DNA of 40,340 bases from a virus, in the UHGV virus genome UHGV-0384112; one strand, 5' to 3'. Shown piece by piece: positions 3,338 to 27,822 of this stretch. The first letter of the stretch is position 1. The number at the start of each line of letters is the position of its first letter. The position numbers and the translations under genes are program-made. A model generated the notes under the pieces. That model did no database searches. It saw nothing but the letters and a program-made list of their open reading frames with translations, and was not told the origin of the DNA.

Positions 3338-3986
3338 AGGCGCAGTACCGCAAATTTTTATTCAGGGATTTATTGGTTCTAGTTGGTTCTTTGAAGGGAA
3401 TACTGACAAGGGAATCAAAAATATTTTGGATAGTCTAGGTGATCAAGAAGAAATTGAAGTAGTAATTAATTCAAACGGTGGAGACGTATTTCAAGGGATT
3501 GCTATTGGGAACTTACTTAAGTCAAATAAAGCAAAAGTTAACGTTGTGATTAACGGCTTAGCCGCTAGTGCTGCTTCAATTATCGCAATGGCTGGCGATA
3601 CTATAAAAATCTACAACAATGCACAATTGATGATTCACCGCGCTTCCACATACGGAGAAGGAAATGTCGATGACTTCCGTACGATTGCTGACCAACTGGA
3701 ATCAATTGATAAATCGGTAAAGGCTTCATATAAAACACGATTCAATGGCACAGATGAAGCATTGCAAGAACTTCTTGAAAAAGAATCGTTTATGGATGCA
3801 GAAACAGCTTTGAGTTATGGATTGGTCGATGAAATTATCGATGCAGAAAATAGCTCAGGTACTGAAGCTAAAAAAGAACAAAGCGTTGAAGAAATTTTGA
3901 ATGACGTTAAAGAAAAAAGAGCAGAAAAAATTGCTGCATTTACAGCAGCATTAAATAAAACATTTGGACAAGGAGATGTAAAATAA
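3300..3986 (+). CDS. prohead serine protease, ClpP-like
   Basis: ClpP-like motifs VINSNGGDVFQGIAIGN, GLAASAASIIAMAGD (Ser) and MIHRA (His). Strong RBS GAAAGGAGGTGA upstream of ATG 3300. The ORF track start at 3291 is probably too early. Confidence 0.8.
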   Translation: MTTMKTFLAVKNEGAVPQIFIQGFIGSSWFFEGNTDKGIKNILDSLGDQEEIEVVINSNGGDVFQGIAIGNLLKSNKAKVNVVINGLAASAASIIAMAGDTIKIYNNAQLMIHRASTYGEGNVDDFRTIADQLESIDKSVKASYKTRFNGTDEALQELLEKESFMDAETALSYGLVDEIIDAENSSGTEAKKEQSVEEILNDVKEKRAEKIAAFTAALNKTFGQGDVK

Positions 3987-5146
3987 TGACAGTTAAAAAT
4001 TTAAAAGGTGTAACAGCTGCAAGCGACCAATTGATGAAAGCTTTTAAAGATGGTAACGAAGAATCTTTTAGCGCAGCTATGGTAAGCTTATCTAAGGAAA
4101 TTCAGGATAAAATTTTAGAAGAAGCAACAGCAAAAAATCAAGATCAATTAGTATTAATGAACCGTGGTCAGCGTGTATTAACTACACAAGAAACAAAATT
4201 CTATAACGAAGTAGTGAAAAACGAAGGTTTTGCAGGGGTCGAAGAATTAGTGCCAGCTACTGTATTTGAACGTGTATTTGAAGATTTAGAACAATCTCAT
4301 CCACTATTGCAAAAAATTACTTTTGTTAACACAACTGGTGTAACAGAATGGATTGTGTCACGTGGAGTCAATCCAGCATGGTGGGGTAAACTTTGCGAAG
4401 CTGTTAAAAAAGTTTTAGATAATGGCTTTGATGTAATTAACATGAAGCAGTTCAAGCTATCAGGTTATATTCCTGTATGTAAGGCAATGCTTGATTTAGG
4501 TCCAGTATGGTTAGATCGTTATGTCCGTACTGTTTTAGTAGAATCATTGAGAATTGCATTAGAACAAGCAATTGTTGATGGTACTGGTAAAGATATGCCA
4601 GTCGGAATGATGCGTGACATGAGCAAACAAACTAGCGGAGAATATGCTGAAAAAAAAGCAGAACCTATTACAGCTTTAGATGCTGTAACTATGGGCGGTT
4701 TGATGGCGCGACTATCAAAATTCAATATCGAAGGTGTGAATGATCCGATTTATCGTAATGTGAATCCTTCTGATGTGGTCCTAATTGTGAATCCAACTGA
4801 TTACTGGTCTAAAGTATTCCCAGCTAAGACTGTACTAACTGCTAATGGAGAATACGTACAAGTATTGCCAGTACCAGTTTCAGATTTGCAGTCAACGGCT
4901 GTGCCAGAAGGAAAAGCAGTTATTGGGGTAGCCTCAGATTACTTCATGGGTGTAGGATCTACACTAAAAATTGAAGCTTCAGATGAATACCATTTTGTTG
5001 AAGACGAACGCATTTATCTAGCTAAACAATATGCAAACGGTCAACCTAAACGTAACGATAGTTTCATTGTATTAGATATTAGCGCTTTGGGAACTACTAC
5101 TACAACTACAAAACCAACAACCACAACAACTACAACACAAGCGTAG
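3986..5146 (+). CDS. major capsid protein, HK97 fold, with N-terminal delta/scaffold-like coiled coil and a C-terminal poly-Thr tail (TTTTTTKPTTTTTTTQA)
   Basis: 386 aa following the protease, with translational coupling (ATAATG). Typical size. The C-terminal run of (ACW)n codons at 5093-5146 is seen directly. Confidence 0.8.
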   Translation: MTVKNLKGVTAASDQLMKAFKDGNEESFSAAMVSLSKEIQDKILEEATAKNQDQLVLMNRGQRVLTTQETKFYNEVVKNEGFAGVEELVPATVFERVFEDLEQSHPLLQKITFVNTTGVTEWIVSRGVNPAWWGKLCEAVKKVLDNGFDVINMKQFKLSGYIPVCKAMLDLGPVWLDRYVRTVLVESLRIALEQAIVDGTGKDMPVGMMRDMSKQTSGEYAEKKAEPITALDAVTMGGLMARLSKFNIEGVNDPIYRNVNPSDVVLIVNPTDYWSKVFPAKTVLTANGEYVQVLPVPVSDLQSTAVPEGKAVIGVASDYFMGVGSTLKIEASDEYHFVEDERIYLAKQYANGQPKRNDSFIVLDISALGTTTTTTKPTTTTTTTQA

Positions 5147-5155
5147 GTGATCAGA

Positions 5156-6031
5156 ATGAAGTATATTCTTTGTCAGCCGGCAATCAATCGGTTTAAATGG
5201 GAGCTTGAAGTTTGTTTAACTAATCTGAAGAAACTAGGAATCAAAGATATCGTATTGCTTTTCAGCAGACACGATGATCAGATTCCTATTTTTTTTGAGA
5301 AGGAATATGGTGTTGAAGTTCATGTGTACGATGATCTGCGGGACGACAAAGAGTATATTCCTTCGATTAAACCATATTTATGGTGGAAATATTTAGAAGA
5401 AGATCATTCGCGTGAGGACGACCGATATTTCTATATCGATTCGGATGTCATTTTCAATAAAAGAATTAATTTGCGCAAATTGCCTTCTAAAGATGATGTT
5501 TGGTATTGTAGCGACTGCTGTAGTTATCTAAGTCTTGATTATATTAGAAGCTGTGAAAACGGAGAAAATATTCTAAAAGATATGGCAAACATTGTAAATG
5601 TTACAGTAGAATCTTTGGAAACTATAAACACTAATTCAGGAGGCGCACAGTGGGTTATTAACCGTCCTAAAGCGAATTATTGGAAAAAGGTTTATCTGGA
5701 TTCTAATCGGCTATATCGCTACCTTAGAGGGCAAAAAACAAATATACAAATCTGGACAGCCGAGATGTGGGCACAGCTTTGGAACATGATGTATTTCAAT
5801 ATTGGTCCTAAAGTTCACGAGGAATTAGACTTTTGTTTTGCTACTGATCCAATAGAAAAAGTTAAAGAAGTAAAAATCTTACACAATGCTGGAGTAACAA
5901 CAAACGATGAAGATTTATTTTTCAAAGGGAGATACGTGACTTCTACGCCTTTTGATGAAGATTTATCATTTGTAAACAAGAAAAAATGCTCTTACGCATA
6001 TGTTAAAGCAATTAAGGCGGTGGTTAGATGA
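5156..6031 (+). CDS. putative GT-A fold glycosyltransferase (GT8-like motifs) embedded in the head operon
   Basis: A hydrophobic strand followed by DxD (YFYIDSDVIF). About 60 aa later comes NSGGAQWVINR, which resembles the GT8 NsGv motif, then KILHNAG. RBS AGGTGA precedes ATG 5156. The stop overlaps the next gene start (ATGA), so it is co-translated with the structural genes. Confidence 0.45.
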   Translation: MKYILCQPAINRFKWELEVCLTNLKKLGIKDIVLLFSRHDDQIPIFFEKEYGVEVHVYDDLRDDKEYIPSIKPYLWWKYLEEDHSREDDRYFYIDSDVIFNKRINLRKLPSKDDVWYCSDCCSYLSLDYIRSCENGENILKDMANIVNVTVESLETINTNSGGAQWVINRPKANYWKKVYLDSNRLYRYLRGQKTNIQIWTAEMWAQLWNMMYFNIGPKVHEELDFCFATDPIEKVKEVKILHNAGVTTNDEDLFFKGRYVTSTPFDEDLSFVNKKKCSYAYVKAIKAVVR

Positions 6032-6339
6032 CGCCTGAACAAGTGACTGAAGAATTGCTAATAGCTGTGAAGGATAATATTTACGTTACCTGGAACGAAG
6101 AAGATGAGTCAATTAAAAAGATGATAGCTAAAAATGCTGTTTATCTTCAAAGTAAAGTGAGTACAACACTTTCTTTTTCTCCTGAAAGCTTAGAATACGG
6201 ATTGCTAATCGAAAGATGTAGATACGACTGGAATCGTGCTTTAGATGAGTTTGAACAAAATTTCGCTAGTGAGTTATTAGGTTTCATTCAACATTATGCG
6301 CTACAAGAATATATTGCAGGTGATGTGAATGGCGAATAA
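6028..6339 (+). CDS. head-tail connector protein (gp6-like)
   Basis: 103 aa, first gene after capsid/GT. Synteny with HK97-like head-tail joining modules. Confidence 0.5.
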   Translation: MTPEQVTEELLIAVKDNIYVTWNEEDESIKKMIAKNAVYLQSKVSTTLSFSPESLEYGLLIERCRYDWNRALDEFEQNFASELLGFIQHYALQEYIAGDVNGE

Positions 6340-6682
6340 TCGTAGACTCGAAGAAACATTCAACGATGGTTGGTTAAAGATTTTGACGCAAACTACCAAA
6401 AGAAATGAACTAGGAAAAAAGATTGGTGTAGAAGATACAGAAATCACTTCTTTAAAATTTAGAAATCTTTCCATGAGAGATAGTGATATAACAGCTATGG
6501 ATGCGATGGGATCGAAATTAACTAAGAAAGTAAAGACTCCATTTCATCCAATCGCCAAGAAATTTAATAAAGATCAATATTTTATCGTAATCGATAGTAT
6601 GCGTTACAACGTTATCTATGCCGATTACGATAATTTTTATATCTATTTTTATCTTGAAAGTGTGGGTGAATATGGTGATTGA
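6329..6682 (+). CDS. head-tail adaptor / head closure protein
   Basis: 117 aa, overlapping start and stop with neighbours. Call by synteny only. Confidence 0.45.
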   Translation: MANNRRLEETFNDGWLKILTQTTKRNELGKKIGVEDTEITSLKFRNLSMRDSDITAMDAMGSKLTKKVKTPFHPIAKKFNKDQYFIVIDSMRYNVIYADYDNFYIYFYLESVGEYGD

Positions 6683-7073
6683 TAATTCTAAAGAAAAAGA
6701 ACGTTTAAATAAGCAAATTTCTGCTATCAAAACTTCCTTAGAAGAGCATTTTGGCCTCAAACTCTTTCAAGACTCCGTAGGCGAGGATGAGCTACCTGAT
6801 GATTTTAATTACTTCATTCTCGAAACAGGAGAAATAGAAATGATCACTGAGCCAAAATATAGCGTGGGTCAAAATCTATATCTAACTTTCTATTCAGAAA
6901 ATAGAGAAGATTTAACAGGAGACTCACTAGATATTATTTCATTGATTCAAAATCGTTCGATTCGTTTTCAGAGAATGGATCCCAATCATTTAAAACTAGA
7001 GAACCAAGATCGCTATATCGATCAATTGGTATTTACGTTTAGACGATTATTGAAGAGTGATTGTCATGGCTAA
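6672..7073 (+). CDS. tail-component protein (HK97 gp10-like)
   Basis: In-frame ATG at 6672 overlaps the stop of the previous gene. Call by synteny. Confidence 0.4.
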   Translation: MVIDNSKEKERLNKQISAIKTSLEEHFGLKLFQDSVGEDELPDDFNYFILETGEIEMITEPKYSVGQNLYLTFYSENREDLTGDSLDIISLIQNRSIRFQRMDPNHLKLENQDRYIDQLVFTFRRLLKSDCHG

Positions 7074-7470
7074 AAATAGTTGGGAGCTAAAAATAAATGG
7101 ACATGATGAACTTCTTGTGCGGATGGAACGCTATTCAAGCGAGAGCGAACGACTGATTAACGAAGCATTGAAATCAAAAGGTTCGGCTATTGCAGTGGAT
7201 AGGATTACAGAAAAAATTCCTGTTTCTGAAGCAGATTTAAGAAGAGGGCACCAACACGCAAAAAATAGTCGTCCACTTAAGACTCAATACATTAATTTGG
7301 GTTTCATCATTAGACCTACAAGAAAATTTGAGTATTTAAAATATCCTGATTTGGGGATAGGTACTTCTAAAAGAAATCAGCCGGACGAATTTATGAGAAG
7401 AGGATTAGGTCTTGCACTTGATCCAATTACAGAACTTCTGATTCGTCAATTCGATAAATTAAATAAATAG
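7066..7470 (+). CDS. tail completion/terminator protein
   Basis: ATG 7066 overlaps the previous stop (ATGGCTAA). Positioned immediately before the major tail protein. Confidence 0.4.
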   Translation: MAKNSWELKINGHDELLVRMERYSSESERLINEALKSKGSAIAVDRITEKIPVSEADLRRGHQHAKNSRPLKTQYINLGFIIRPTRKFEYLKYPDLGIGTSKRNQPDEFMRRGLGLALDPITELLIRQFDKLNK

Positions 7471-18423: not shown

Positions 18424-18644
18424 ATAATAAAACGTTCGAAGTACTAAAATGGTTCGCACTGGTAATTATTCCCGCACTAGCTACTTTCGTGGGGTTAGTT
18501 GGTAAAGCGCTCAATTGGCAGTACACAGATATCTGTGTTGTCATCATTACTGGTTTTGGCGCGTTTTTAGGGAGTGTGTTGGGTGTATCAAATCGAACCT
18601 ACAAAATGTTCTCGGCTGAAAGCGAAGAAGGAGGAAACAAATGA
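18420..18644 (+). CDS. holin (two TM segments)
   Basis: 74 aa with two hydrophobic helices and a charged C-terminus. Directly upstream of, and overlapping, the endolysin. Confidence 0.6.
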   Translation: MNNKTFEVLKWFALVIIPALATFVGLVGKALNWQYTDICVVIITGFGAFLGSVLGVSNRTYKMFSAESEEGGNK

Positions 18645-19666
18645 AAAAGAAAATTACTATTACTGCGATGAGCCTGTTAACGGCTCTTTTTTTATTACCC
18701 ATTAATACGTTTGCTTATACTATTAATGACGAGTATAATTTAGCGCCGAATCAAGGAGACTCCAGATTAGCAATTCCTAACAAAATTATTTTGCACGAAA
18801 CTGGAATAGATGCACCAGCAAGAAACGTAGCCGCCAACATGAAAAATAATTATAACGGAAGCAATTCTTATACTACAGATGTTATTGGTGACGGTGGGAT
18901 TGTTTACCGTGTGGGTGAGCAAGGATATGTTTCGTGGGGAGCTGGTAACGCTAATCCTTATGCGCCTGTACAGATTGAATTACAGCGCACATATGATAAA
19001 GCATTGTTTGAAAAAAACTATCGAGCTTATATTGAATATACAAGAGATAGTGCAAAAAAATATGGAATTCCATTGACTCTTGATCAAGGAACTTCTTTAT
19101 TTACAAAAGGAATCATTTCTCATTTGTGGGTGACAAATTATGTTTGGGGGAACCACACAGATCCATATGGTTACTTATCGCAAATGGGAGTTAGCAAAGA
19201 AAAGCTTGCTTATGATTTAGCTCATGGATTTACCGATGAAAATCCAACAACTTCTGAAAACAAGCCTGTCATTGATCCAACACGAGCTGGTGCAGCTAAT
19301 CCTACGCTGACAGATGGAACAAATCACGCCCACATTGATCAGTTTGGGGAAATCGAAAACGCAAACTTGCATGTGGCTGGATGGCACATTGCTAACTATA
19401 AATACGAGTATATTTTCATTATGGACTACAATACTGGGAAAGAATTAGCTCGAGTAAGAGCTGATGGAATTTATAGACCAGATGTAAACCAAGCTTATAA
19501 TACTTCTGGAAATGTTGGTTATCATGTATCTTTCAATATGCGTAATTTTCCTAGTAAGAAAGTCTATGTAATGATGCGGGCAACGAATGATCCAGAGGGA
19601 AACACTAAAGGCGGTGCGCAAGATTTCCATGACAAACGTTGGTATTTAAATATTCCTAAACGATAA
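18641..19666 (+). CDS. endolysin, Amidase_2-like N-acetylmuramoyl-L-alanine amidase with an N-terminal Sec-type signal peptide and a C-terminal wall-binding domain
   Basis: MKKKITITAMSLLTALFLLPINTFA|YT is a signal peptide. IILHETG…SYTTDVIGDGGIVYRVGEQGY…GNANPYAPVQIEL resembles amidase_2/PGRP. Last gene of the late operon. Confidence 0.65.
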   Translation: MKKKITITAMSLLTALFLLPINTFAYTINDEYNLAPNQGDSRLAIPNKIILHETGIDAPARNVAANMKNNYNGSNSYTTDVIGDGGIVYRVGEQGYVSWGAGNANPYAPVQIELQRTYDKALFEKNYRAYIEYTRDSAKKYGIPLTLDQGTSLFTKGIISHLWVTNYVWGNHTDPYGYLSQMGVSKEKLAYDLAHGFTDENPTTSENKPVIDPTRAGAANPTLTDGTNHAHIDQFGEIENANLHVAGWHIANYKYEYIFIMDYNTGKELARVRADGIYRPDVNQAYNTSGNVGYHVSFNMRNFPSKKVYVMMRATNDPEGNTKGGAQDFHDKRWYLNIPKR

Positions 19667-19670
19667 AAAT

Positions 19671-19688
19671 AGCTCCTCGTTGAGGAGC
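19671..19688. terminator. hairpin GCTCCTC-gttg-GAGGAGC after the endolysin
   Basis: Perfect 7-bp stem. The U-tract lies on the minus-strand side only, so its function as a + strand terminator is uncertain. Confidence 0.35.
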
Positions 19689-19702
19689 AGTACATAACTA
19701 TA

Positions 19703-20212: not shown

Positions 20213-20442
20213 TTATATTTGAAGCCATTAAAAAGCATACCATATTTTTGAAAAAAAGTGAGAAAAAAGGCTTACAATTGGAGTGGTAGTTAATTAGTGA
20301 CTTATTTTTGATTTTATAGCACTGATACTATAAAATATAGATATCATCATATTACACAATCTTAATACTAACTTAAAAAATATCTCCTTTCACAAGTATG
20401 GTGATAAAATTCGTTCCGGGCTACCTTTTTAGGTAGCCTACT

Positions 20443-20531
20443 TTAATCTTTATACCTTTCTGGATCAACGAAAGTATACTTTATATAGTCATAACGCCGA
20501 TGATCGCTACGTGCGTCCGGCACGTCAGTCA
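20443..20531. repeat. 89-bp direct repeat, copy 1 (about 97% identical to 23923..24011); 3'-end fragment of the minus-strand gene at 23923..24225
   Basis: Manual alignment with two mismatches. Read on the minus strand it encodes …TDVPDARSDHRRYDYIKYTFVDPERYK plus the stop. It ends exactly at the left end of the IS. Confidence 0.85.
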
Positions 20532-20605
20532 TGAATCGGCTACACTAGACTAGACAGAAAAAATAAGGTGTGTAGAATAATAAAAAACACACTGGAGGAT
20601 TTTTC

Positions 20606-20896
20606 ATGTCAAGACGTCAACGAAGAACCTATTCAAAAGAATTCAAACAACAAATCGTCGATCTCTATCTCGCTGGTAAGCCTCGCGCAGAAATTATTCG
20701 AGAGTATGAGCTTACGCCTTCTTCTTTCGATAAATGGATGAAGCAAGCACAATCAACGGGCTCATTCAAAGAAAGAGACAACTTAACACCAGAACAAGCA
20801 GAATTGATCGCACTAAGAAAGAAAAATAAGCAACTCGAAATGGAGAATGATATTTTAAAGCAAGCGGCGCTGATATTCGGACGAAAAGACAAGTAA
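20606..20896 (+). CDS. IS3-family transposase OrfA (HTH)
   Basis: 96 aa containing the IS3 OrfA leucine-zipper/HTH pattern (KEFKQQIVDLY…LEMENDILKQA). Confidence 0.8.
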   Translation: MSRRQRRTYSKEFKQQIVDLYLAGKPRAEIIREYELTPSSFDKWMKQAQSTGSFKERDNLTPEQAELIALRKKNKQLEMENDILKQAALIFGRKDK

Positions 20897-21768
20897 TTGA
20901 TGCCAACAAGCATAAATATTCCATATCAGCGATGTGCAAAATTCTAAATATTTCTCGTCAAACCTACTATTATCAAGCGAAACCGATCGAAAATGAGTCC
21001 GACTTAGAAGAGATCGTTCAGGAAGAGTTTATTCGAAACCGAAAGGCTTACGGTACCCGAAAATTGAAGAAGTGTTTAGCAAAGCGTGGGCTTCAACTCA
21101 GTCGGCGCCGAATCGGTCGAATCATGAAACGCCGCGGATTGACATCTACCTATACGATCGCTCATTTTAAAGGGCAACGAACAGCTTGTAATGAAGCGAA
21201 AACAGCGAATGTATTAGATCGGACCTTTACACAAGAACAGCCATTGGAAGCCATCGTTACGGATCTTACTTATGTTCGCGTGGGGAAAAAGTGGCATTAT
21301 ATCTGCTTAATACTTGATTTGTTTAATCGAGAAATTATTGGTTATTCCTGTGGTGAGAAGAAAGATGCCTCATTGGTAAAAGAAGCCTTTGGACGGATAC
21401 CGTATTCTTTAACAGACGTCAAGCTTTTTCATACAGACCGGGGAAAGGAATTTGATAACCAAACCATTCATGAGATTCTGAATGGTTTTGGAATTACTCG
21501 TTCATTGAGTAGGAAGGGTTGTCCGTATGATAATGCCGTTGTGGAATCAACCTATAAATCTGTCAAAGTAGAATTCGTGCATCAATACCAATTTGAGACA
21601 CTGGCACAGCTACGTCTAGAATTGTTTGATTATGTGCATTGGTGGAACTATCTACGCTTACATGGCACGTTGGCGTATGAAACACCGATCCAAATTCGAC
21701 AACAGAGATTGGCGAAGCGAATCCTTGATAATGAGCGCGGATCTGATACCTCTGGAGAGGCAGCGTAA
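20851..21768 (+). CDS. IS3-family transposase OrfB (DDE integrase domain); probably expressed as an OrfAB fusion via -1 frameshift near 20884-20888 (A_AAA_AG)
   Basis: The -1 frame is open from 20851, and the first ATG is at 20932. DDE-domain hallmarks such as HTDRGKEF, and the C-terminal pattern LHGTLAYETP typical of IS3 transposases. Confidence 0.75.
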   Translation, partial: YFKASGADIRTKRQVIDANKHKYSISAMCKILNISRQTYYYQAKPIENESDLEEIVQEEFIRNRKAYGTRKLKKCLAKRGLQLSRRRIGRIMKRRGLTSTYTIAHFKGQRTACNEAKTANVLDRTFTQEQPLEAIVTDLTYVRVGKKWHYICLILDLFNREIIGYSCGEKKDASLVKEAFGRIPYSLTDVKLFHTDRGKEFDNQTIHEILNGFGITRSLSRKGCPYDNAVVESTYKSVKVEFVHQYQFETLAQLRLELFDYVHWWNYLRLHGTLAYETPIQIRQQRLAKRILDNERGSDTSGEAA

Positions 21769-21855
21769 TTGAATGATTGTGCTTCTGCCGGAGAAAATCA
21801 GATCCGAGGATGCTCATTGTCAAGGGCAATCGTAGCCATAACACCGCAGCATTCA

Positions 21856-22400
21856 CAACACCTTATAATTTTTGTCAAAAAAAGTGTTGCCATTCCACTT
21901 TTTTTAAATATGCGTTCTCTGCTCTTAAACGAATAACTTCTTCTTCAAGAGACTCATCTTTAAGTTTTTTAGGAATGTTTAGCTTGGAATTCATACTAAT
22001 TTTTCTGCCCCTTTTTTGGCTCTCAAGTGAAGAAGCACCGCCTTCTTCATATTGCTCTATCCATTTACTTAGAGTTCTATTTGAACCGATATTAAATTTT
22101 TTAGCAGTTTCTTGGATAGAAAGACCATTTGTTTCCATATATTCTATAACATCAAGTTTAAATTTTGTAGTGTAGCTTTTGCCACCTCCAACCAAGCCTT
22201 CCCAACCATGATAGTTATAAATCCTTACCCAATGTCTAACCAGTGTACGATTTATTTGATATTTATGTGCAAGATATTTGTAGCCGCCTTCGTTATTTAA
22301 ATAGTCTGAAACTACTTTTTTCTTAAAAACAAATGTATATTTCCGCAAAAAAAGCACCCCTTTTAATTAGATTTCTAGTCTAACTTTTGGGGTGCACATC
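21856..22400 (-). mobile_element. truncated IS3-family (IS150-group-like) element; its orfB was lost or displaced by the neighbouring IS
   Basis: An intact IS150-like orfA with no orfB downstream. The downstream side is occupied by the other IS. There is an inverted repeat GCACCCC…GGGGTGC near 22346-22395. Confidence 0.5.
21875..22357 (-). CDS. IS150-like transposase OrfA (remnant element)
   Basis: 160 aa containing HTH_Tnp patterns (FKLDVIEYMETNGLSIQETAKKFNI). Confidence 0.7.
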   Translation of the reverse strand: MLFLRKYTFVFKKKVVSDYLNNEGGYKYLAHKYQINRTLVRHWVRIYNYHGWEGLVGGGKSYTTKFKLDVIEYMETNGLSIQETAKKFNIGSNRTLSKWIEQYEEGGASSLESQKRGRKISMNSKLNIPKKLKDESLEEEVIRLRAENAYLKKVEWQHFF

Positions 22401-22691
22401 ATTTTTGAGGGGAAGTACATATAGTTGTTGATATAGTTGCTAATATTGTTAGCTAATTTGTTAGTAAAACTGTATACGAATTTAGATAGTAAAAAAACAG
22501 TTTGTTCCTTATATAGAGGCACTTTTACTACTGATTAAATGTCAGATATGCTTACAAATATACTTATAAATATGCTTACAAAATTAGCTAATATTTCCGT
22601 TGACAAAGCTTTGTTACTATTGTTAAACTAAATTGACTAGCAAAAGTGAAACATAAATTTATTAAATAAATGTAAAAATTAGGAGAAATCA

Positions 22692-23099
22692 ATGTCTTAT
22701 AGAGTACAATTAATAATTTCAGAAGATGTAGAAAGTCAGCAATTTGGCACTAATGTTATTAATAAAGTAATTAATCCAGCTCTTTCTATTAATGCGCCTT
22801 TAATTCCTACTGCTTTATCATTTTCTGTAACAGCTGTGGTGTCTGAGATAGAGGATACAGAAAAGATAAAAATAGTAGAAATTGAAGTTTTAAACAAGAA
22901 TGAAAAACAAATTTTTTCTACGGGTGAAGTATCGGTAAGCTTGCCTCCTCAAGTTAACGATATAAACTTTAATATAAACGCCAGAAATGTCTTGGTTGAA
23001 GAAGCAGGAGAGCATTATGCTGTTGTTAAATTTAATGGAACTGAGATTGGAAGGCAAATCTTTGATATCAAGGTCAACAAACCAGTGGAAAAAAATTAA
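22692..23099 (+). CDS. hypothetical beta-rich protein (cassette gene 1)
   Basis: 135 aa with RBS AGGAG 7 nt before the ATG. First gene of the three-gene moron cassette. Confidence 0.5.
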   Translation: MSYRVQLIISEDVESQQFGTNVINKVINPALSINAPLIPTALSFSVTAVVSEIEDTEKIKIVEIEVLNKNEKQIFSTGEVSVSLPPQVNDINFNINARNVLVEEAGEHYAVVKFNGTEIGRQIFDIKVNKPVEKN

Positions 23100-23112
23100 G
23101 GAGACGATACGG

Positions 23113-23514
23113 ATGCTTGATATAGTACCATCAAATACACATCGGAGTGGTAGCTTAATAAATTTTGCTGCGATTTTTGCTTGCGCATCGGTAATTCTAG
23201 CATCTCCAGTTGTTGTGGATGCAAGTTCTACTCCGAAAACTAAAAATGATAATCAACTTGTAATTACTACAAAAAATGAGATTAACACAATTTCAAGTAA
23301 TGATGGCAAAATTTTTGATGTGATAAATACGGTTTTAAAAAGAAAAGCTGAAATCAATATAAAATATGATGAAGATTTAAACTTGTATTTCTTTGTTATC
23401 AAAACAACATCTGAATTGTTTTCCTCAGATTACGATGTTTTGGATACTCTCGATAATGTATTATCTGACTATAAATATATGGGGAAATCTGTAGTAGCAA
23501 CTTTGGGGGAATAA
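23113..23514 (+). CDS. hypothetical membrane-anchored protein (cassette gene 2)
   Basis: RBS AAGGAG before ATG 23113. One hydrophobic helix (LINFAAIFACASVILASPVVV) near the N-terminus. Confidence 0.5.
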   Translation: MLDIVPSNTHRSGSLINFAAIFACASVILASPVVVDASSTPKTKNDNQLVITTKNEINTISSNDGKIFDVINTVLKRKAEINIKYDEDLNLYFFVIKTTSELFSSDYDVLDTLDNVLSDYKYMGKSVVATLGE

Positions 23515-23515
23515 A

Positions 23516-23887
23516 ATGTTTGACTTTAATGAATATTTATCTATTTCCAAACAAATTGAATCAGATGATAAATATAATTCTAAAGAATCTTATAGAAGAA
23601 CTGCTGTTTCAAGAGCATACTACAGTGCTTTTAAAAAATCTGATGAGTATTTGAAAGAAAATTATGATATTATTTATAATGGAAGTAGCGGAAAAGGAAG
23701 CCACCAAACCGTTTGGAATTTGTTTTCAACAGTTAAGGAATTGAATACCTTAGGAATACATAATAGTGGGTATAGAATGTTAGAGAAAAGAAAATGTGCT
23801 GACTATATTCCTAATGAAACCATTACGAAAACAGATATGGCGCTGATGAATCGAGAAGCAGAAAAAATAATAAACAAACTCACCTAA
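23516..23887 (+). CDS. HEPN-like domain protein (cassette gene 3)
   Basis: The start is 2 nt after the upstream stop. Helix-1 motif RRTAVSRAYYSAFKK, a mid His (GSHQTVWNLF) and a C-terminal R-x4-Y (RKCADYIPNE) followed by an acidic helix resemble PF05168-type HEPN. Motif-level only. Confidence 0.4.
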   Translation: MFDFNEYLSISKQIESDDKYNSKESYRRTAVSRAYYSAFKKSDEYLKENYDIIYNGSSGKGSHQTVWNLFSTVKELNTLGIHNSGYRMLEKRKCADYIPNETITKTDMALMNREAEKIINKLT

Positions 23888-23922
23888 TGAATTTCAAGCG
23901 AGTTTGTTTGTTATTTTTTTAT

Positions 23923-24011
23923 TTAATCTTTGTATCTTTCTGGATCAACGAAAGTATACTTTATATAGTCATAACGCCGATGATCGCTACGTGCGTCCGG
24001 CACGTCAGTCA
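23923..24011. repeat. 89-bp direct repeat, copy 2
   Basis: See copy 1. Confidence 0.85.
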
Positions 24012-24225
24012 CGATATCAAACAAAAAGTATACACCCTTCTTCATTCTAGTTTTCGCAGCAGGAATTTTGAAATAGTTCTTATTAGAATAGTAGAGATTG
24101 ATTAATAAGCTATCTTCGATTGCTAAAAAGAAAACTTCTGAATTCCATACTTTATAAAAATCTTTGATAAATCTATTCGAAGGGTCAAATTTAAACCATA
24201 ATTGTGTTTTTCCTTCCATCAGCAT
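23923..24225 (-). CDS. hypothetical protein whose 3' end is duplicated at 20443..20531
   Basis: 100 aa with no recognisable motifs. It contains repeat copy 2. Confidence 0.5.
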   Translation of the reverse strand: MLMEGKTQLWFKFDPSNRFIKDFYKVWNSEVFFLAIEDSLLINLYYSNKNYFKIPAAKTRMKKGVYFLFDIVTDVPDARSDHRRYDYIKYTFVDPERYKD

Positions 24226-24311: not shown

Positions 24312-24508
24312 TTGTGCCAAATTATGTGCCAAAAAAATTCGAATTCAACAAAATGTAAACAAATAGAAAACCTTCTATATTAAGATTTCCTGCAATAACA
24401 AACACAACAGAAGACGTGTAATAGTTAGTCAGGAACGTATAAATAACCCCTGTATCCTTTGCGGTACAGGGGTTTGTTTTGTATTTGTGCCAAAAATGTG
24501 CCAAACTA
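24312..24508. repeat. four copies of TGTGCCAAA in two tandem pairs (24313-24334 and 24487-24508) flanking a hairpin; candidate arm-type integrase-binding sites / attP region
   Basis: Seen directly. Immediately 3' of the integrase gene, where attP usually lies. Confidence 0.4.
24449..24482 (+). terminator. rho-independent terminator (CCCCTGTA-tcctttgcgg-TACAGGGG + TTTGTTTT)
   Basis: Seen directly. It lies between the two TGTGCCAAA repeat pairs. Confidence 0.55.
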
Positions 24509-25675
24509 GTTATCATTTTTATATAAACTATCGAACACAGTATTGATTTTTTCTTTATCCTGATCTTCAAGCTCTCGAACAATATGAAGATAAGTAGACA
24601 TTGTAGTTTCTAAACTGCTATGTCCTAAACGTTTCGATACGCTAAGTATATTTACTCCTTGATAAAGTAAAATAGATGCATGTGTATGCCTTAGTCCATG
24701 CAAAGTAAATTGCTTTTCAATCCCTAATTCTTTTAATTTTTTGCGCAAATATTTGCTGACGGCGTTTGATGAAACTAATCCATTTTTTAAGTTGAAAAAA
24801 ACAAAATTATGAGGGTTTTTGATTTCAAAATTCTCGAATAATTCTTTTTGATTGATTTTAAACTTTTTTAAGAGATCAATCGTATGTTTATCAATGGAAA
24901 TTTTCCTATTTGAAGTTTCGTTTTTTGTTTTTCCCCATTCATTTAATTTATAATTCCATGTTTTATTAATAGTGATGATTTGATCTTCGAAATCGATATC
25001 TTCCCATGTTAATCCTAGAAGTTCAGCAAATCGCATTCCAGTGGCACCAGCAACTAACACGAGCATAGGAGAAGAGTACTGCGCAGAAAGGTTTTCTTCT
25101 ACGAGTTTCATTAAAGATTTAAATTGATCATAATCTAAATATTTATCTTCTTTTGGCTTCAATGAATCTTTTCCTTTGATTACTGCTTTTCTAGTTGGAT
25201 CAAACGGAATTAATCCTTCTTCTACGGCATCTTTCAACGACGCTCTAATATGGTTATTAAACTTAATAACGGTAGATTTTACATGGTCTTTAGCATACTT
25301 ATTTAAAAAGCGTTGATATCCCACTCTATCTAAATCAGAAATCAATACCGCTGGCATATATTTCTTTATGTTCATTAACGTATCTTCGTATTTTCTATAA
25401 GTGATAGGAGATACTGTTCCTTCTTTATAAAGTTGCATCCAATCCTCAAAGTAATCTGATAATAATAGATTTTTGCGATCCCCTTTAAGGCCTTTGTTCA
25501 AGTTATATTCTAATTCGTTGGCGGCATCTTTTGCTTCTCCTTTTGTCTTAAATCCTGATTTTCTTATCTTCGTGTATTTTCCGTCATCTTTTTTGTATGA
25601 AATTTCGTATTGCCAACTATTTCCACGTTTGACTAATCTTGCCATAATTGAATCAGCTCTCTTTCTCTGATACAA
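24506..25675 (-). CDS. int: tyrosine site-specific integrase
   Basis: 389 aa. The C-terminal catalytic region contains R…HGLRHTHASILL…LGHSSLETTMSTYLH (R-H-R-Y). Confidence 0.9.
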   Translation of the reverse strand: MYQRKRADSIMARLVKRGNSWQYEISYKKDDGKYTKIRKSGFKTKGEAKDAANELEYNLNKGLKGDRKNLLLSDYFEDWMQLYKEGTVSPITYRKYEDTLMNIKKYMPAVLISDLDRVGYQRFLNKYAKDHVKSTVIKFNNHIRASLKDAVEEGLIPFDPTRKAVIKGKDSLKPKEDKYLDYDQFKSLMKLVEENLSAQYSSPMLVLVAGATGMRFAELLGLTWEDIDFEDQIITINKTWNYKLNEWGKTKNETSNRKISIDKHTIDLLKKFKINQKELFENFEIKNPHNFVFFNLKNGLVSSNAVSKYLRKKLKELGIEKQFTLHGLRHTHASILLYQGVNILSVSKRLGHSSLETTMSTYLHIVRELEDQDKEKINTVFDSLYKNDN

Positions 25676-25943: not shown

Positions 25944-26579
25944 TTAAGTAAGAGTTGAGTTAATAAATTGAATTCCTAAATGAGATATTTTGTAGCCCAT
26001 ATTTTGTTTGCCGACATCACCTAATACTATGGAGCTAATCGTTTTTTCTAACAGACCAAAATCAGATAATCTATTTAAGCTACCATCTATTAGCTCTTGT
26101 GAATAGCCAGACATGCTGATATTTCCAGTGAAATTTTCGTTTCCACGACTCATTAAGCATGCTAACAATTGAATCTCAATCGATGTTAATTGATTCAGTA
26201 CAAGAAGATAATACTCCTCGTTATCCCATGAAGCGTTGTTAATTCGAAGTAAACAATTCTTATAAAGATTTTTATACATATCTATTTTATTTTGTGCCTT
26301 TGATTTTTCTACCTCGTCATTTATCCCTTCGAATATTCCAATGAGTTGGTCCTTGTTCTCTAAGTTGAAAACATCTTCTGGAATTTGATCGCGAATGTTT
26401 TCTAATGATTCGTTTAAATTTTTGTAGAATTTCTCGATGCGTTTGAAACGCTTCTCGTTTTTAGACCCAAAATAAAGTGACTGCACAACGCCACCAATAT
26501 AAGGAATTGCTCCAATACCGCCTTCAACTATTAATTCAAGATATTCTTTTTTGGTTAGTTTTTCATTGCTATTATCCAT
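25944..26579 (-). CDS. hypothetical protein (moron between int and repressor; candidate Abi or superinfection-exclusion protein)
   Basis: 211 aa, cytoplasmic-looking, with no recognisable motifs. Classic lysogenic-conversion locus. Confidence 0.5.
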   Translation of the reverse strand: MDNSNEKLTKKEYLELIVEGGIGAIPYIGGVVQSLYFGSKNEKRFKRIEKFYKNLNESLENIRDQIPEDVFNLENKDQLIGIFEGINDEVEKSKAQNKIDMYKNLYKNCLLRINNASWDNEEYYLLVLNQLTSIEIQLLACLMSRGNENFTGNISMSGYSQELIDGSLNRLSDFGLLEKTISSIVLGDVGKQNMGYKISHLGIQFINSTLT

Positions 26580-26691: not shown

Positions 26692-27327
26692 TTATTTTTT
26701 ACTTACTTTACTATTAATCATATCCCATTGAGCATAGGATTTTTCTATGTTCGATCCTCTTGAACTAATTTCTCCTGTAAAAGTTACTTTATCGCCCTTT
26801 GTAAAGGTATCAGCATTGTTTAAGTCCTTCGCAAAAATTACATATGAAACTTTAGGTGTTGCAGAAATATCATTCCAACTTTTATCATCGTACTCTTTGT
26901 CTGCTATAATGGCTATTCTAGTAGTCATTGATTCGATAACAGTTCCTTCAAAAGTATATGTTTTACCACTAATATATTTAGTAAAAGCTGTATTTTGCTC
27001 AGTAGCTGGAGTAATAGAATAATAACTATCTAAGAAAGCACCCCAGTCATGATTATTTGTCTCTAAAAATTCTTCAAATTGAGTTAGGCTTTTATTGCTG
27101 CTGTTAGATGTAGTAGTTTGAGTATCAGATGATGAGCTTTCCTGTTTGTTATTGTCATTTGCCTCGTTTGATGAGGAAAGCGAGAAACCTACGGTAGTAA
27201 AAATAATCCCGATAATAAGGAGAATCATAGGTGTTTTCTTATTTGTTTTTTTGATAAATCTTACAATTAACATGATTAAACCTATAATAAATAAAACAAT
27301 ACCAGTAAAACCAAATATACCGTCCAT
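26692..27327 (-). CDS. membrane-anchored surface protein with a Ser/Thr-rich linker and an extracytoplasmic beta-domain (DUF4352-like?)
   Basis: N-terminal TM helices, a low-complexity S/T/N/Q linker and a C-terminal globular domain. Located between int and cI. Confidence 0.5.
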   Translation of the reverse strand: MDGIFGFTGIVLFIIGLIMLIVRFIKKTNKKTPMILLIIGIIFTTVGFSLSSSNEANDNNKQESSSSDTQTTTSNSSNKSLTQFEEFLETNNHDWGAFLDSYYSITPATEQNTAFTKYISGKTYTFEGTVIESMTTRIAIIADKEYDDKSWNDISATPKVSYVIFAKDLNNADTFTKGDKVTFTGEISSRGSNIEKSYAQWDMINSKVSKK

Positions 27328-27360: not shown

Positions 27361-27822
27361 TTATAAACCAAGCAATTCTTTTTTCTTAAAATCGAATTCT
27401 TCTTGATTAATAATCCCTTCATCTAACAACTCTTTATACTTTTTAATTTCATCTGCACTTGAAATTTGTGTTTCTTTGGAATTATTATCTAATATAGATT
27501 GTTGCTTCTCTATATATTTTTTTAAATTTTCCATTTCATTCCAATATTTTTTTGTAAACATAACGGTGTTTTCATCTTTCGTGGCCGCTAATATACCTCC
27601 GCGACTTTCGTTTCCGCCTAGCAAGGTAAATTGTATATAACCATTACTCATACCTGGTTTTTTTAATTGTACGGCTGATATATTTTTAAAGGGGATAGTT
27701 TTTTCTCCTTTAATACCTTGATTAACTAAATTTATAAATCCTTTTCTAATAATTGAAATAGAATCATCAGTTACTTTAATCAAGGTTTTTCCTGGAGATT
27801 TTATTAAAATCTCTTTTTCCAT
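27361..27822 (-). CDS. bacterial PH-like domain protein with a C-terminal SHOCT motif
   Basis: C-terminus SADEIKKYKELLDEGIINQEEFDFKKKELLGL matches the SHOCT pattern. The N-terminal half is beta-rich and PH-like. Confidence 0.5.
   Translation of the reverse strand: MEKEILIKSPGKTLIKVTDDSISIIRKGFINLVNQGIKGEKTIPFKNISAVQLKKPGMSNGYIQFTLLGGNESRGGILAATKDENTVMFTKKYWNEMENLKKYIEKQQSILDNNSKETQISSADEIKKYKELLDEGIINQEEFDFKKKELLGL

Follow-up and report, generated by a model that had tools for sequence, protein, structure and literature searches.

The stretch of DNA analyzed here, the virus genome UHGV-0384112 (40,340 nucleotides [nt] in length, hereafter the window), belongs to a temperate siphophage of the Enterococcus faecium type and carries, at positions 22692 to 23887, a cassette of three plus-strand genes, termed genes 1 to 3. 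An earlier note on this DNA had read the cassette as a candidate defense or toxin module ending in a HEPN-like protein and described three tightly packed, codirectional genes of 135, 133, and 123 amino acids (aa), each with its own ribosome-binding site. The coordinates confirm this layout, with intergenic gaps of 13 and 1 nt, and Shine-Dalgarno-like sequences were found ahead of gene 1 (AGGAG), gene 2 (AAGGAG), and gene 3 (GGGGG). A promoter-like site, TTGACA-18 nt-(TG)TAAACT, lies ahead of gene 1 at 22600 to 22629, and the hairpin between gene 3 and the convergent gene beyond it (Table 1) is likely a bidirectional terminator. The G+C content is 29 to 32% in the cassette and 25% in its upstream region, compared to 35.4% in the whole window. 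Upstream of the promoter-like site are two sets of 12-nt tandem repeats, about three per set (ATATAGTTGCTA and ATATGCTTACAA, at 22419 to 22464 and 22546 to 22582), which might be operators or sites bound by a regulator. Enterococcus phage 4995_1 (OP745419) is 99.5% identical to the window over the cassette region and has all three genes annotated as "hypothetical protein."

The product of gene 3 is a genuine HEPN protein and falls in the AF0298-like branch of PF05168. An exhaustive profile search with gene 3 returned 778 cluster representatives at E ≤ 1e-3, and 94 family members were aligned. PF05168 was matched by 53 of these 94 relatives (best E = 2.9e-9), and the family profile matched the solved HEPN structures 9xbd (E = 6.8e-11), 9xbc (a Y-to-F variant of 9xbd; 1.1e-9), and AF0298 (2hsb; 4.2e-5). 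An AlphaFold2 model of gene 3, computed with the family alignment, comprised seven helical segments and had a predicted local distance difference test score (pLDDT) of 97.7 and a predicted template-modeling score (pTM) of 0.91. Its best Foldseek match was 2hsb (probability 1.00, TM-score 0.64), and the top 18 matches, among them 2hsb, HepT, the sacsin HEPN domain, and ST0689, were all HEPN proteins except 1wty, a Thermus nucleotidyltransferase-like protein. The leading matches had probabilities near 1 and TM-scores up to 0.67, with modest E-values, as expected for small helical bundles. The earlier reading of gene 3 as a classical PF05168-type HEPN protein is thus well founded, as are the AYYSAF, mid-protein His, and R-x4-Y motifs on which it drew. 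These are present in gene 3 as SRAYYSAF, His63, and R92-x3-D96-Y97 (reading R92-K-C-A-D96-Y97), and R28, R33, Y35, Y36, H63, R92, D96, and Y97 show little or no variation among the 94 members.

According to Anantharaman et al. (PMC3710099), AF0298-like HEPN-T proteins retain the Arg of the Rx4-6H motif and have another residue, often Asp, in place of its His; a further His, strongly conserved and located upstream between helices 2 and 3, could provide an alternative active site. The residue pattern of gene 3 (R92, D96, Y97, and H63) fits this description: the Arg of Rx4-6H is kept as R92, invariant in the 94 members, the His position is taken by Asp, and a second conserved His, H63, lies upstream, at the end of the loop ahead of helix 62 to 72 in the model. 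Gene 3 also shares with these proteins (PF05168; 2hsb and 9xbd) a helical bundle of about 120 to 130 aa with SRAYY in a long helix; unlike them, it falls under the Pfam threshold, is phage-borne, and has partners that are not nucleotidyltransferases. We predict that it is a metal-independent ribonuclease (RNase) effector. The sole PADLOC match of gene 3 was a weak one to HEPN_IX (E = 0.006, 32 residues, aa 17 to 48); among its 94 relatives, HEPN_IX matched 25 and PDC-M05B matched 8, and these are domain-level matches. A 509-nt contig filed as Stenotrophomonas sp. 278 (NZ_RHPP01000334.1) encodes gene 3 residues 5 to 123 at 100% identity; this copy is likely assembly contamination, the contig name giving about 1x coverage.

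The trio is a conserved, self-contained, mobile operon. The earlier note had treated the three genes as one unit, and the same order is indeed kept in five other loci or groups of loci (Table 1), with identities to the window of 39 to 64% for gene 3, 27 to 41% for gene 2, and 18 to 53% for gene 1; genes 2 and 3 either lie 1 nt apart or, in L110 and L113, share 8 nt. Retention of one gene order in independent loci whose gene 3 proteins are 39 to 64% identical to that of the window indicates that the linkage is more than chance. The trios of L110 to L112 and of L113 follow two unrelated endolysins, and those of L003, L004, and L008 lie in contexts that do not look like phage. Among temperate phages of Firmicutes, the trio recurs in the accessory-gene slot that follows the lysin. 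About 800 nt past the trio in L111, a gene of the metallo-beta-lactamase fold (6205 to 7179) has a match in PF23023, the anti-Pycsar Apyc1 family, and may act in anti-defense or be a host gene resembling RNase Z.

Gene 2 had been described as having a single N-terminal transmembrane helix, from which a membrane-linked system was proposed. Over 19 residues, the mean Kyte-Doolittle hydropathy of its segment 16 to 36 is 2.1, a transmembrane-grade value, and the claim stands for the E. faecium clade; it is less secure for the more distant orthologues (L008, L110, and L113), where the segment is weaker, at only 1.2 to 1.4. Judged by hydropathy, then, the membrane link of gene 2 is secure for the closest clade only. 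Residues 62 to 133 were modeled as an alpha-beta-beta-alpha-beta domain (pLDDT 92 to 95) with low-scoring fold likeness to membrane-tethered ring-building, BON, and SpoIIIAH-type domains. Gene 2 matched no family in any library searched, and it lacks the conserved nucleotidyltransferase motif G[SG]...DxD, only D86 being conserved. A PADLOC match to HamC2 (E = 2.5e-4) was absent in four orthologues, and kinship of gene 2 with HamC/DUF3223 was dismissed as chance.

Beyond the trios, 79 genome loci with gene 3 relatives were examined, mostly from Acidobacteriota, Chloroflexota, Cyanobacteria, and Armatimonadota. An upstream open reading frame (ORF) ending at or overlapping the HEPN start was present in 77 of the 79, and one family, here called X, supplied 73 of these 77 abutting ORFs. 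In L012 to L089, the upstream ORFs end at about position 3995 to 4005 of each locus. X has a core of about 117 aa with the motif DPE...L.I.T...EA...L..FD..WW; it had no match in Pfam, in a profile search of PDB, or in PADLOC, and it is not MNT. No relatives of gene 1 or gene 2 were encoded in the 79 loci. In X, AF0298-type HEPN proteins seem to have a non-MNT partner not described before, and in gene arrangement the X-HEPN pair is consistent with a type II toxin-antitoxin system whose antitoxin gene comes first. In two low-G+C loci (L009 and L117), the X-HEPN pair is preceded by a third gene, so that three-gene X-HEPN versions with a different first gene exist; this gene (298 to 915 in L009 and 3 to 377 in L117) belongs to an unrelated family, with a pairwise E of 9e-4 between its two members.

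Gene 2 occupies the same position relative to the HEPN gene as X does. The secondary-structure order predicted for its C-terminal domain, alpha-beta-beta-alpha-beta, matches the conservation pattern of X, and hhalign comparisons of gene 2 with X were colinear (P = 0.004 to 0.05, probability 1 to 8%), the best of them (P = 0.004, 8%) running end to end over the C-terminal domains. Moreover, the X member of L117 and gene 2 of L113 share FG.NVSY..YD.D and VVTLE (pairwise BLAST E = 0.003). A hidden Markov model of X did not detect gene 2 (E about 1). We regard homology of gene 2 to X as no more than plausible.

Gene 1 matched PF22091 (DUF6941) with E = 3.9e-7 and 30.9 bits (cutoff, 27), its orthologues scored 37.7 to 64.3 bits, and it matched phrog_5881 with E = 2.4e-32. 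A literature search found no mention of DUF6941. In a one-genome-per-species search, no gene 1 relatives were found; an IMG/VR search with three queries returned only identical E. faecium prophages and two distant loci, and metagenome contigs yielded six loci, five of them identical. A word-indexed protein search returned only close relatives for all three cassette genes. The protein clusters represented here hold 293 member sequences for gene 1 and 167 for gene 3.

DUF6941 genes were also found without a HEPN gene in four phages (Table 1), each with a coupled gene downstream whose coiled-coil product bears a hydrophobic segment resembling a membrane anchor. These pairs resemble the cassette in their first gene (18 to 37% identity to gene 1), in the tight coupling of the downstream gene, in its membrane-anchor-like segment, and, for three of the four phages, in the post-lysin slot. 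They differ from it in lacking a HEPN gene, and their downstream protein is a coiled coil rather than the gene 2 fold; the pairs are uncharacterized. A constant first gene with alternative downstream genes is common among defense systems; with four examples, it is no more than a lead here.

The earlier note had found no named system to match the cassette. Part of this holds: no model in PADLOC-DB v2.0.0 describes the three-gene system. The wider HEPN family, in contrast, is usually a two-gene module with X, so that relatives do exist and the cassette is a variant of that module rather than without relatives. Compared to the X-HEPN modules (L012 to L089 and L114 to L118), the cassette has a HEPN protein of the same family (25 to 36% identity), a partner gene that abuts or overlaps the HEPN start, and a partner whose C-terminal domain shares the predicted alpha-beta-beta-alpha-beta order of X. 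In contrast, X lacks a hydrophobic N terminus and is not significantly similar to gene 2, and the X-HEPN modules have no DUF6941 gene, are mostly chromosomal, and occur in other phyla. The type VII HEPN-MNT systems (HepT/MntA and SO_3166/SO_3165) likewise place a small HEPN gene directly downstream of a small partner gene, and the gene 3 model matches HepT structures with TM-scores of 0.62 to 0.67. The invariant Tyr beside the Arg motif, Y97, recalls the AMPylated Tyr of these systems, its position being Rx4Y versus RX4HXY in HEPN-MNT, and no modifying enzyme is present in the cassette. Unlike HEPN-MNT, the cassette has no adjacent minimal nucleotidyltransferase (MNT) with the G[SG]x9-13 Dh[DE]h motif, as genes 1 and 2 match no nucleotidyltransferase family, and it has three genes instead of two.

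Prophage-encoded HEPN abortive-infection proteins are known, namely HepS of Gifsy-1 and Tha (PMC13043305). The cassette resembles them in having a HEPN effector in a prophage accessory slot, with the expected logic of an RNase that would stay silent until infection; HepS, unlike the cassette, consists of one protein and carries the canonical RX4-6H motif, and no sequence relationship between the two was detected. Literature searches found nothing for 9xbd with HEPN, for UPF0332 with HEPN, or for a relevant Enterococcus prophage HEPN protein. Altogether, HEPN effectors and HEPN toxin-antitoxin systems are already well known, the architecture of DUF6941, gene 2 protein, and AF0298-type HEPN protein is unmatched in PADLOC v2 or the searchable literature, and the partner family X appears to be undescribed.

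We favor, with a probability of roughly 0.45, the reading that the cassette is a toxin-antitoxin-like, probably abortive-infection, module with a predicted HEPN RNase effector. The cassette would be a self-contained lysogenic-conversion operon residing in the post-lysin slot of Firmicutes temperate phages. The toxic effector would be gene 3, an AF0298-type HEPN RNase. Gene 2, whose translation is coupled to that of gene 3, would serve as the cognate neutralizer or adaptor of the RNase and, for the E. faecium clade at the least, might hold the complex at the membrane; gene 1 would provide a third component, a regulator or sensor. Infection or stress would free the RNase and arrest the cell, as in toxin-antitoxin-like abortive infection, and the same module could double as prophage addiction. 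Toxicity, RNase activity, gene 2 as neutralizer, gene 1 as sensor, and a function against phages are all inferred.

Several results weigh against this reading. Gene 3 alone had no Pfam match at E ≤ 1, and PADLOC holds no model for gene 1 or gene 2. The canonical His 4 to 6 residues after R92 is absent from gene 3, which has Asp instead, so that activity would rest on the proposed alternative His63. The similarity between gene 2 and X lies below database significance, the hhalign probability being 1 to 8%. The gene 2 N terminus of L110 and L113 resembles a Sec signal peptide, which would place the conserved domain outside the cell, apart from a cytoplasmic HEPN protein; because the hydrophobic segment is weaker or signal peptide-like in other orthologues, the topology of gene 2 is ambiguous. 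Finally, the cassette is broken in at least one prophage, L095, and is thus dispensable for the phage.

A rival reading is a pure addiction (toxin-antitoxin) module that would stabilize the prophage or genomic island carrying it and have no role against other phages. While genes 2 and 3 are tightly coupled in a toxin-antitoxin-like layout and the trio also occurs in nonphage contexts (L004 and L008), the trios of the window, L100, L110 to L112, and L113 all sit in the temperate-phage post-lysin slot, and simple addiction needs no third gene. Likewise, the two-gene X-HEPN family is scattered in the chromosomes of the four phyla named above, not in phages, as would suit an addiction module, whereas the occurrence of DUF6941 with differing downstream proteins is a pattern more typical of defense systems. 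We consider pure addiction unlikely.

The loss of the canonical His could also mean that this PF05168-type HEPN protein is nontoxic, a nucleotide- or RNA-binding regulatory subunit in an operon that serves phage or host physiology, e.g., RNA processing or lysis/lysogeny control. However, the invariance of R92, H63, D96, and Y97 in 94 diverse members speaks for a site of catalysis or modification that has been conserved, not one that has degenerated, and the absence of the cassette from the close relative vB_ElaS_B1578, together with its disruption in L095, places it outside the core phage life cycle. Such a role is, in our estimation, distinctly unlikely.

Prophages of lactic acid bacteria typically carry Sie and Ltp proteins among their accessory genes, and the signal-anchor or signal-peptide-like N-terminal segment in all gene 2 orthologues, the low-scoring likeness of gene 2 to membrane-tethered folds, and the membrane-anchored partners after DUF6941 in four other phages are all in line with gene 2 being an exported or surface-anchored superinfection-exclusion or cell-surface protein that blocks adsorption or DNA entry, with neighbors linked by chance and an unrelated HEPN role; yet this account is improbable, as the strictly kept order of genes 1, 2, and 3 and the coupling or overlap of genes 2 and 3 down to 39% gene 3 identity indicate one functional unit, and genes 1 and 3 have no export signal.

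If the cassette functions as a toxin-antitoxin-like immunity module, as we favor, it would represent a new HEPN immunity or toxin-antitoxin architecture, in which an AF0298-type HEPN protein lacking the canonical His is placed under partners that are not nucleotidyltransferases. In addition, it would offer a first way into the function of DUF6941 and of the widespread family X, nearly all of the sampled loci of this HEPN family (778 cluster representatives) being paired with X. Since the cassette is carried by prophages of the clinically important E. faecium and its clusters hold 293 and 167 sequences, it could, if functional, influence phage-therapy host range. A broader proposal, which we hold to be doubtful, is that DUF6941 is a common sensor or regulator of undescribed Firmicutes prophage immunity modules with swappable effectors, either a membrane-anchored coiled-coil protein (the two-gene form of phiMH1, 38502, StB12, and AP45) or a membrane-tethered adaptor with a HEPN RNase lacking the canonical His (the three-gene form of the window), gene 2 being a divergent member of an undescribed non-MNT HEPN antitoxin family, X. 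The cassette is a credible, solid candidate worth cloning rather than a categorical surprise.

Table 1. Features of the window and of the compared loci
Sequence	Feature	Coordinates	Strand	Remarks
Window	Amidase_2 endolysin	18641-19666		
Window	tRNA-Met, CAT anticodon	19856-19929	+	Part of alternative post-lysin slot allele
Window	Left copy of direct repeat	20442-20534		Truncated 3' end of second DUF5960 gene, cut by IS3 left end
Window	Complete IS3-family element	20532-21897	+	orfA 20606-20896, orfB 20932-21768; imperfect 41-nt terminal inverted repeats
Window	Fragment of second IS3-family element	21898-22398	-	orfA only (21875-22357, minus); outer end abuts cassette upstream region
Window	Cassette upstream noncoding region	22399-22691	+	25% G+C; homology to L100, the allele free of insertion sequences, starts exactly at 22399
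Window	Gene 1, 135 aa	22692-23099	+	DUF6941 (PF22091); no signal peptide
Window	Gene 2, 133 aa	23113-23514	+	Hydrophobic segment aa 16-36, poorly modeled linker, C-terminal domain aa 62-133
Window	Gene 3, 123 aa	23516-23887	+	HEPN protein, AF0298-like branch of PF05168
Window	Hairpin, T-runs on either side	23872-23909		Between gene 3 and convergent DUF5960 gene, common to both
Window	Right copy of direct repeat	23922-24014		3' end of intact DUF5960 gene
Window	Intact DUF5960 gene, 100 aa	23923-24225	-	Convergent with cassette; PF19385, E = 3.5e-18
Window	Tyrosine integrase	24506-25675	-	
L003	Trio, gene 3 identity 64%			Beside SRAP / DUF5960 / UmuC-like cluster
L004	Trio, gene 3 identity 61%			Beside chromosomal-looking genes
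L008	Trio, gene 3 identity 41%			Beside permease gene
L110-L112	Trio, gene 3 identity 41%			Right after Amidase_2 + SH3 endolysin, ahead of holin-family gene
L113	Trio, gene 3 identity 39%			Right after CHAP endolysin
L090, Leuconostoc phiMH1	DUF6941 + coiled-coil pair	3495-4411		After lysis genes
L091, Lactococcus 38502	DUF6941 + coiled-coil pair	3477-4516		After lysis genes
L119, Staphylococcus StB12	DUF6941 + coiled-coil pair	3459-4267		After lysis genes
L120, Aeribacillus AP45	DUF6941 + coiled-coil pair	3447-4479		Beside recombinase

Around the cassette, the gene order is structural genes, endolysin, tRNA-Met, a complete IS3-family insertion sequence (IS), an IS3 orfA fragment, the cassette, DUF5960, and the tyrosine integrase, beyond which come more accessory genes and then ImmA/IrrE and a repressor. 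This agrees with the placement by the earlier note in a slot between the lysis module and the integrase, beside IS debris. The tRNA-Met is the sole Rfam match within the window, and its block is also present in phage vB_ElaS_B1578. In phage 4995_1, the transposase of the complete IS3 element is annotated as frameshifted.

A direct repeat of 89 bp had been said to bracket the cassette. The repeat exists, with a length of 93 nt, 97% identity between copies, and a spacing of 3480 nt; its copies enclose the complete IS3 element and the IS3 fragment along with the cassette, not the cassette by itself, and they mark no cassette boundary. Comparison with other phages accounts for this arrangement. 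In L100, an IMG/VR contig with an IS-free allele, the order is endolysin, terminator hairpin, cassette, DUF5960, and integrase, and homology to the window begins exactly where the IS3 fragment ends (22399). In vB_ElaS_B1578, which has the other allele, the endolysin is followed by other genes, tRNA-Met, and DUF5960, with no cassette. In L095 (IMGVR_UViG_2870046823_000002, 3714 to 6640), the cassette breaks off once gene 2 has begun; past the break, about 1.3 kb unmatched in the window is followed by the tRNA-Met block, which runs into DUF5960. L095 is a degraded, rearranged version of the same post-lysin slot. Furthermore, the sequence after the endolysin stop codon is present twice in the window in diverged form, before the tRNA block (19668 to 19696) and before the cassette (22399 to 22421), and this pair marks the left boundary common to both slot alleles. 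Taken together, the alleles of L100, vB_ElaS_B1578, and L095 indicate that the window holds both post-lysin alleles in tandem, joined via the two IS3 elements. The direct repeat is a duplicated DUF5960 tail left by this joining and not a signature of mobility; a role as an att site or transposon boundary was rejected, since the repeat is a DUF5960 tail, IS3 truncates its left copy, and one allele carries no IS. As the slot illustrates, accessory-gene alleles of these phages are reshuffled by IS3 elements.

DUF5960 adjoins the cassette in the window and likewise in L003 (2534 to 2833), there inside a cluster with SRAP and UmuC-like (IMS) genes, and vB_ElaS_B1578 has DUF5960 but no cassette. Three more accessory genes, all on the minus strand, are located from the integrase to ImmA/IrrE (25944 to 26579, 26692 to 27327, and 27361 to 27822). 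Among their products, a 211-aa protein had only weak PADLOC matches (CARF_TM, 3.2e-4; LeoBC, 1.4e-3), a 210-aa protein had only a weak match to the NfeD membrane domain (PF24961, E = 5.3e-4, under the Pfam cutoff), and the third gene past the integrase encodes a DUF4429-SHOCT protein.

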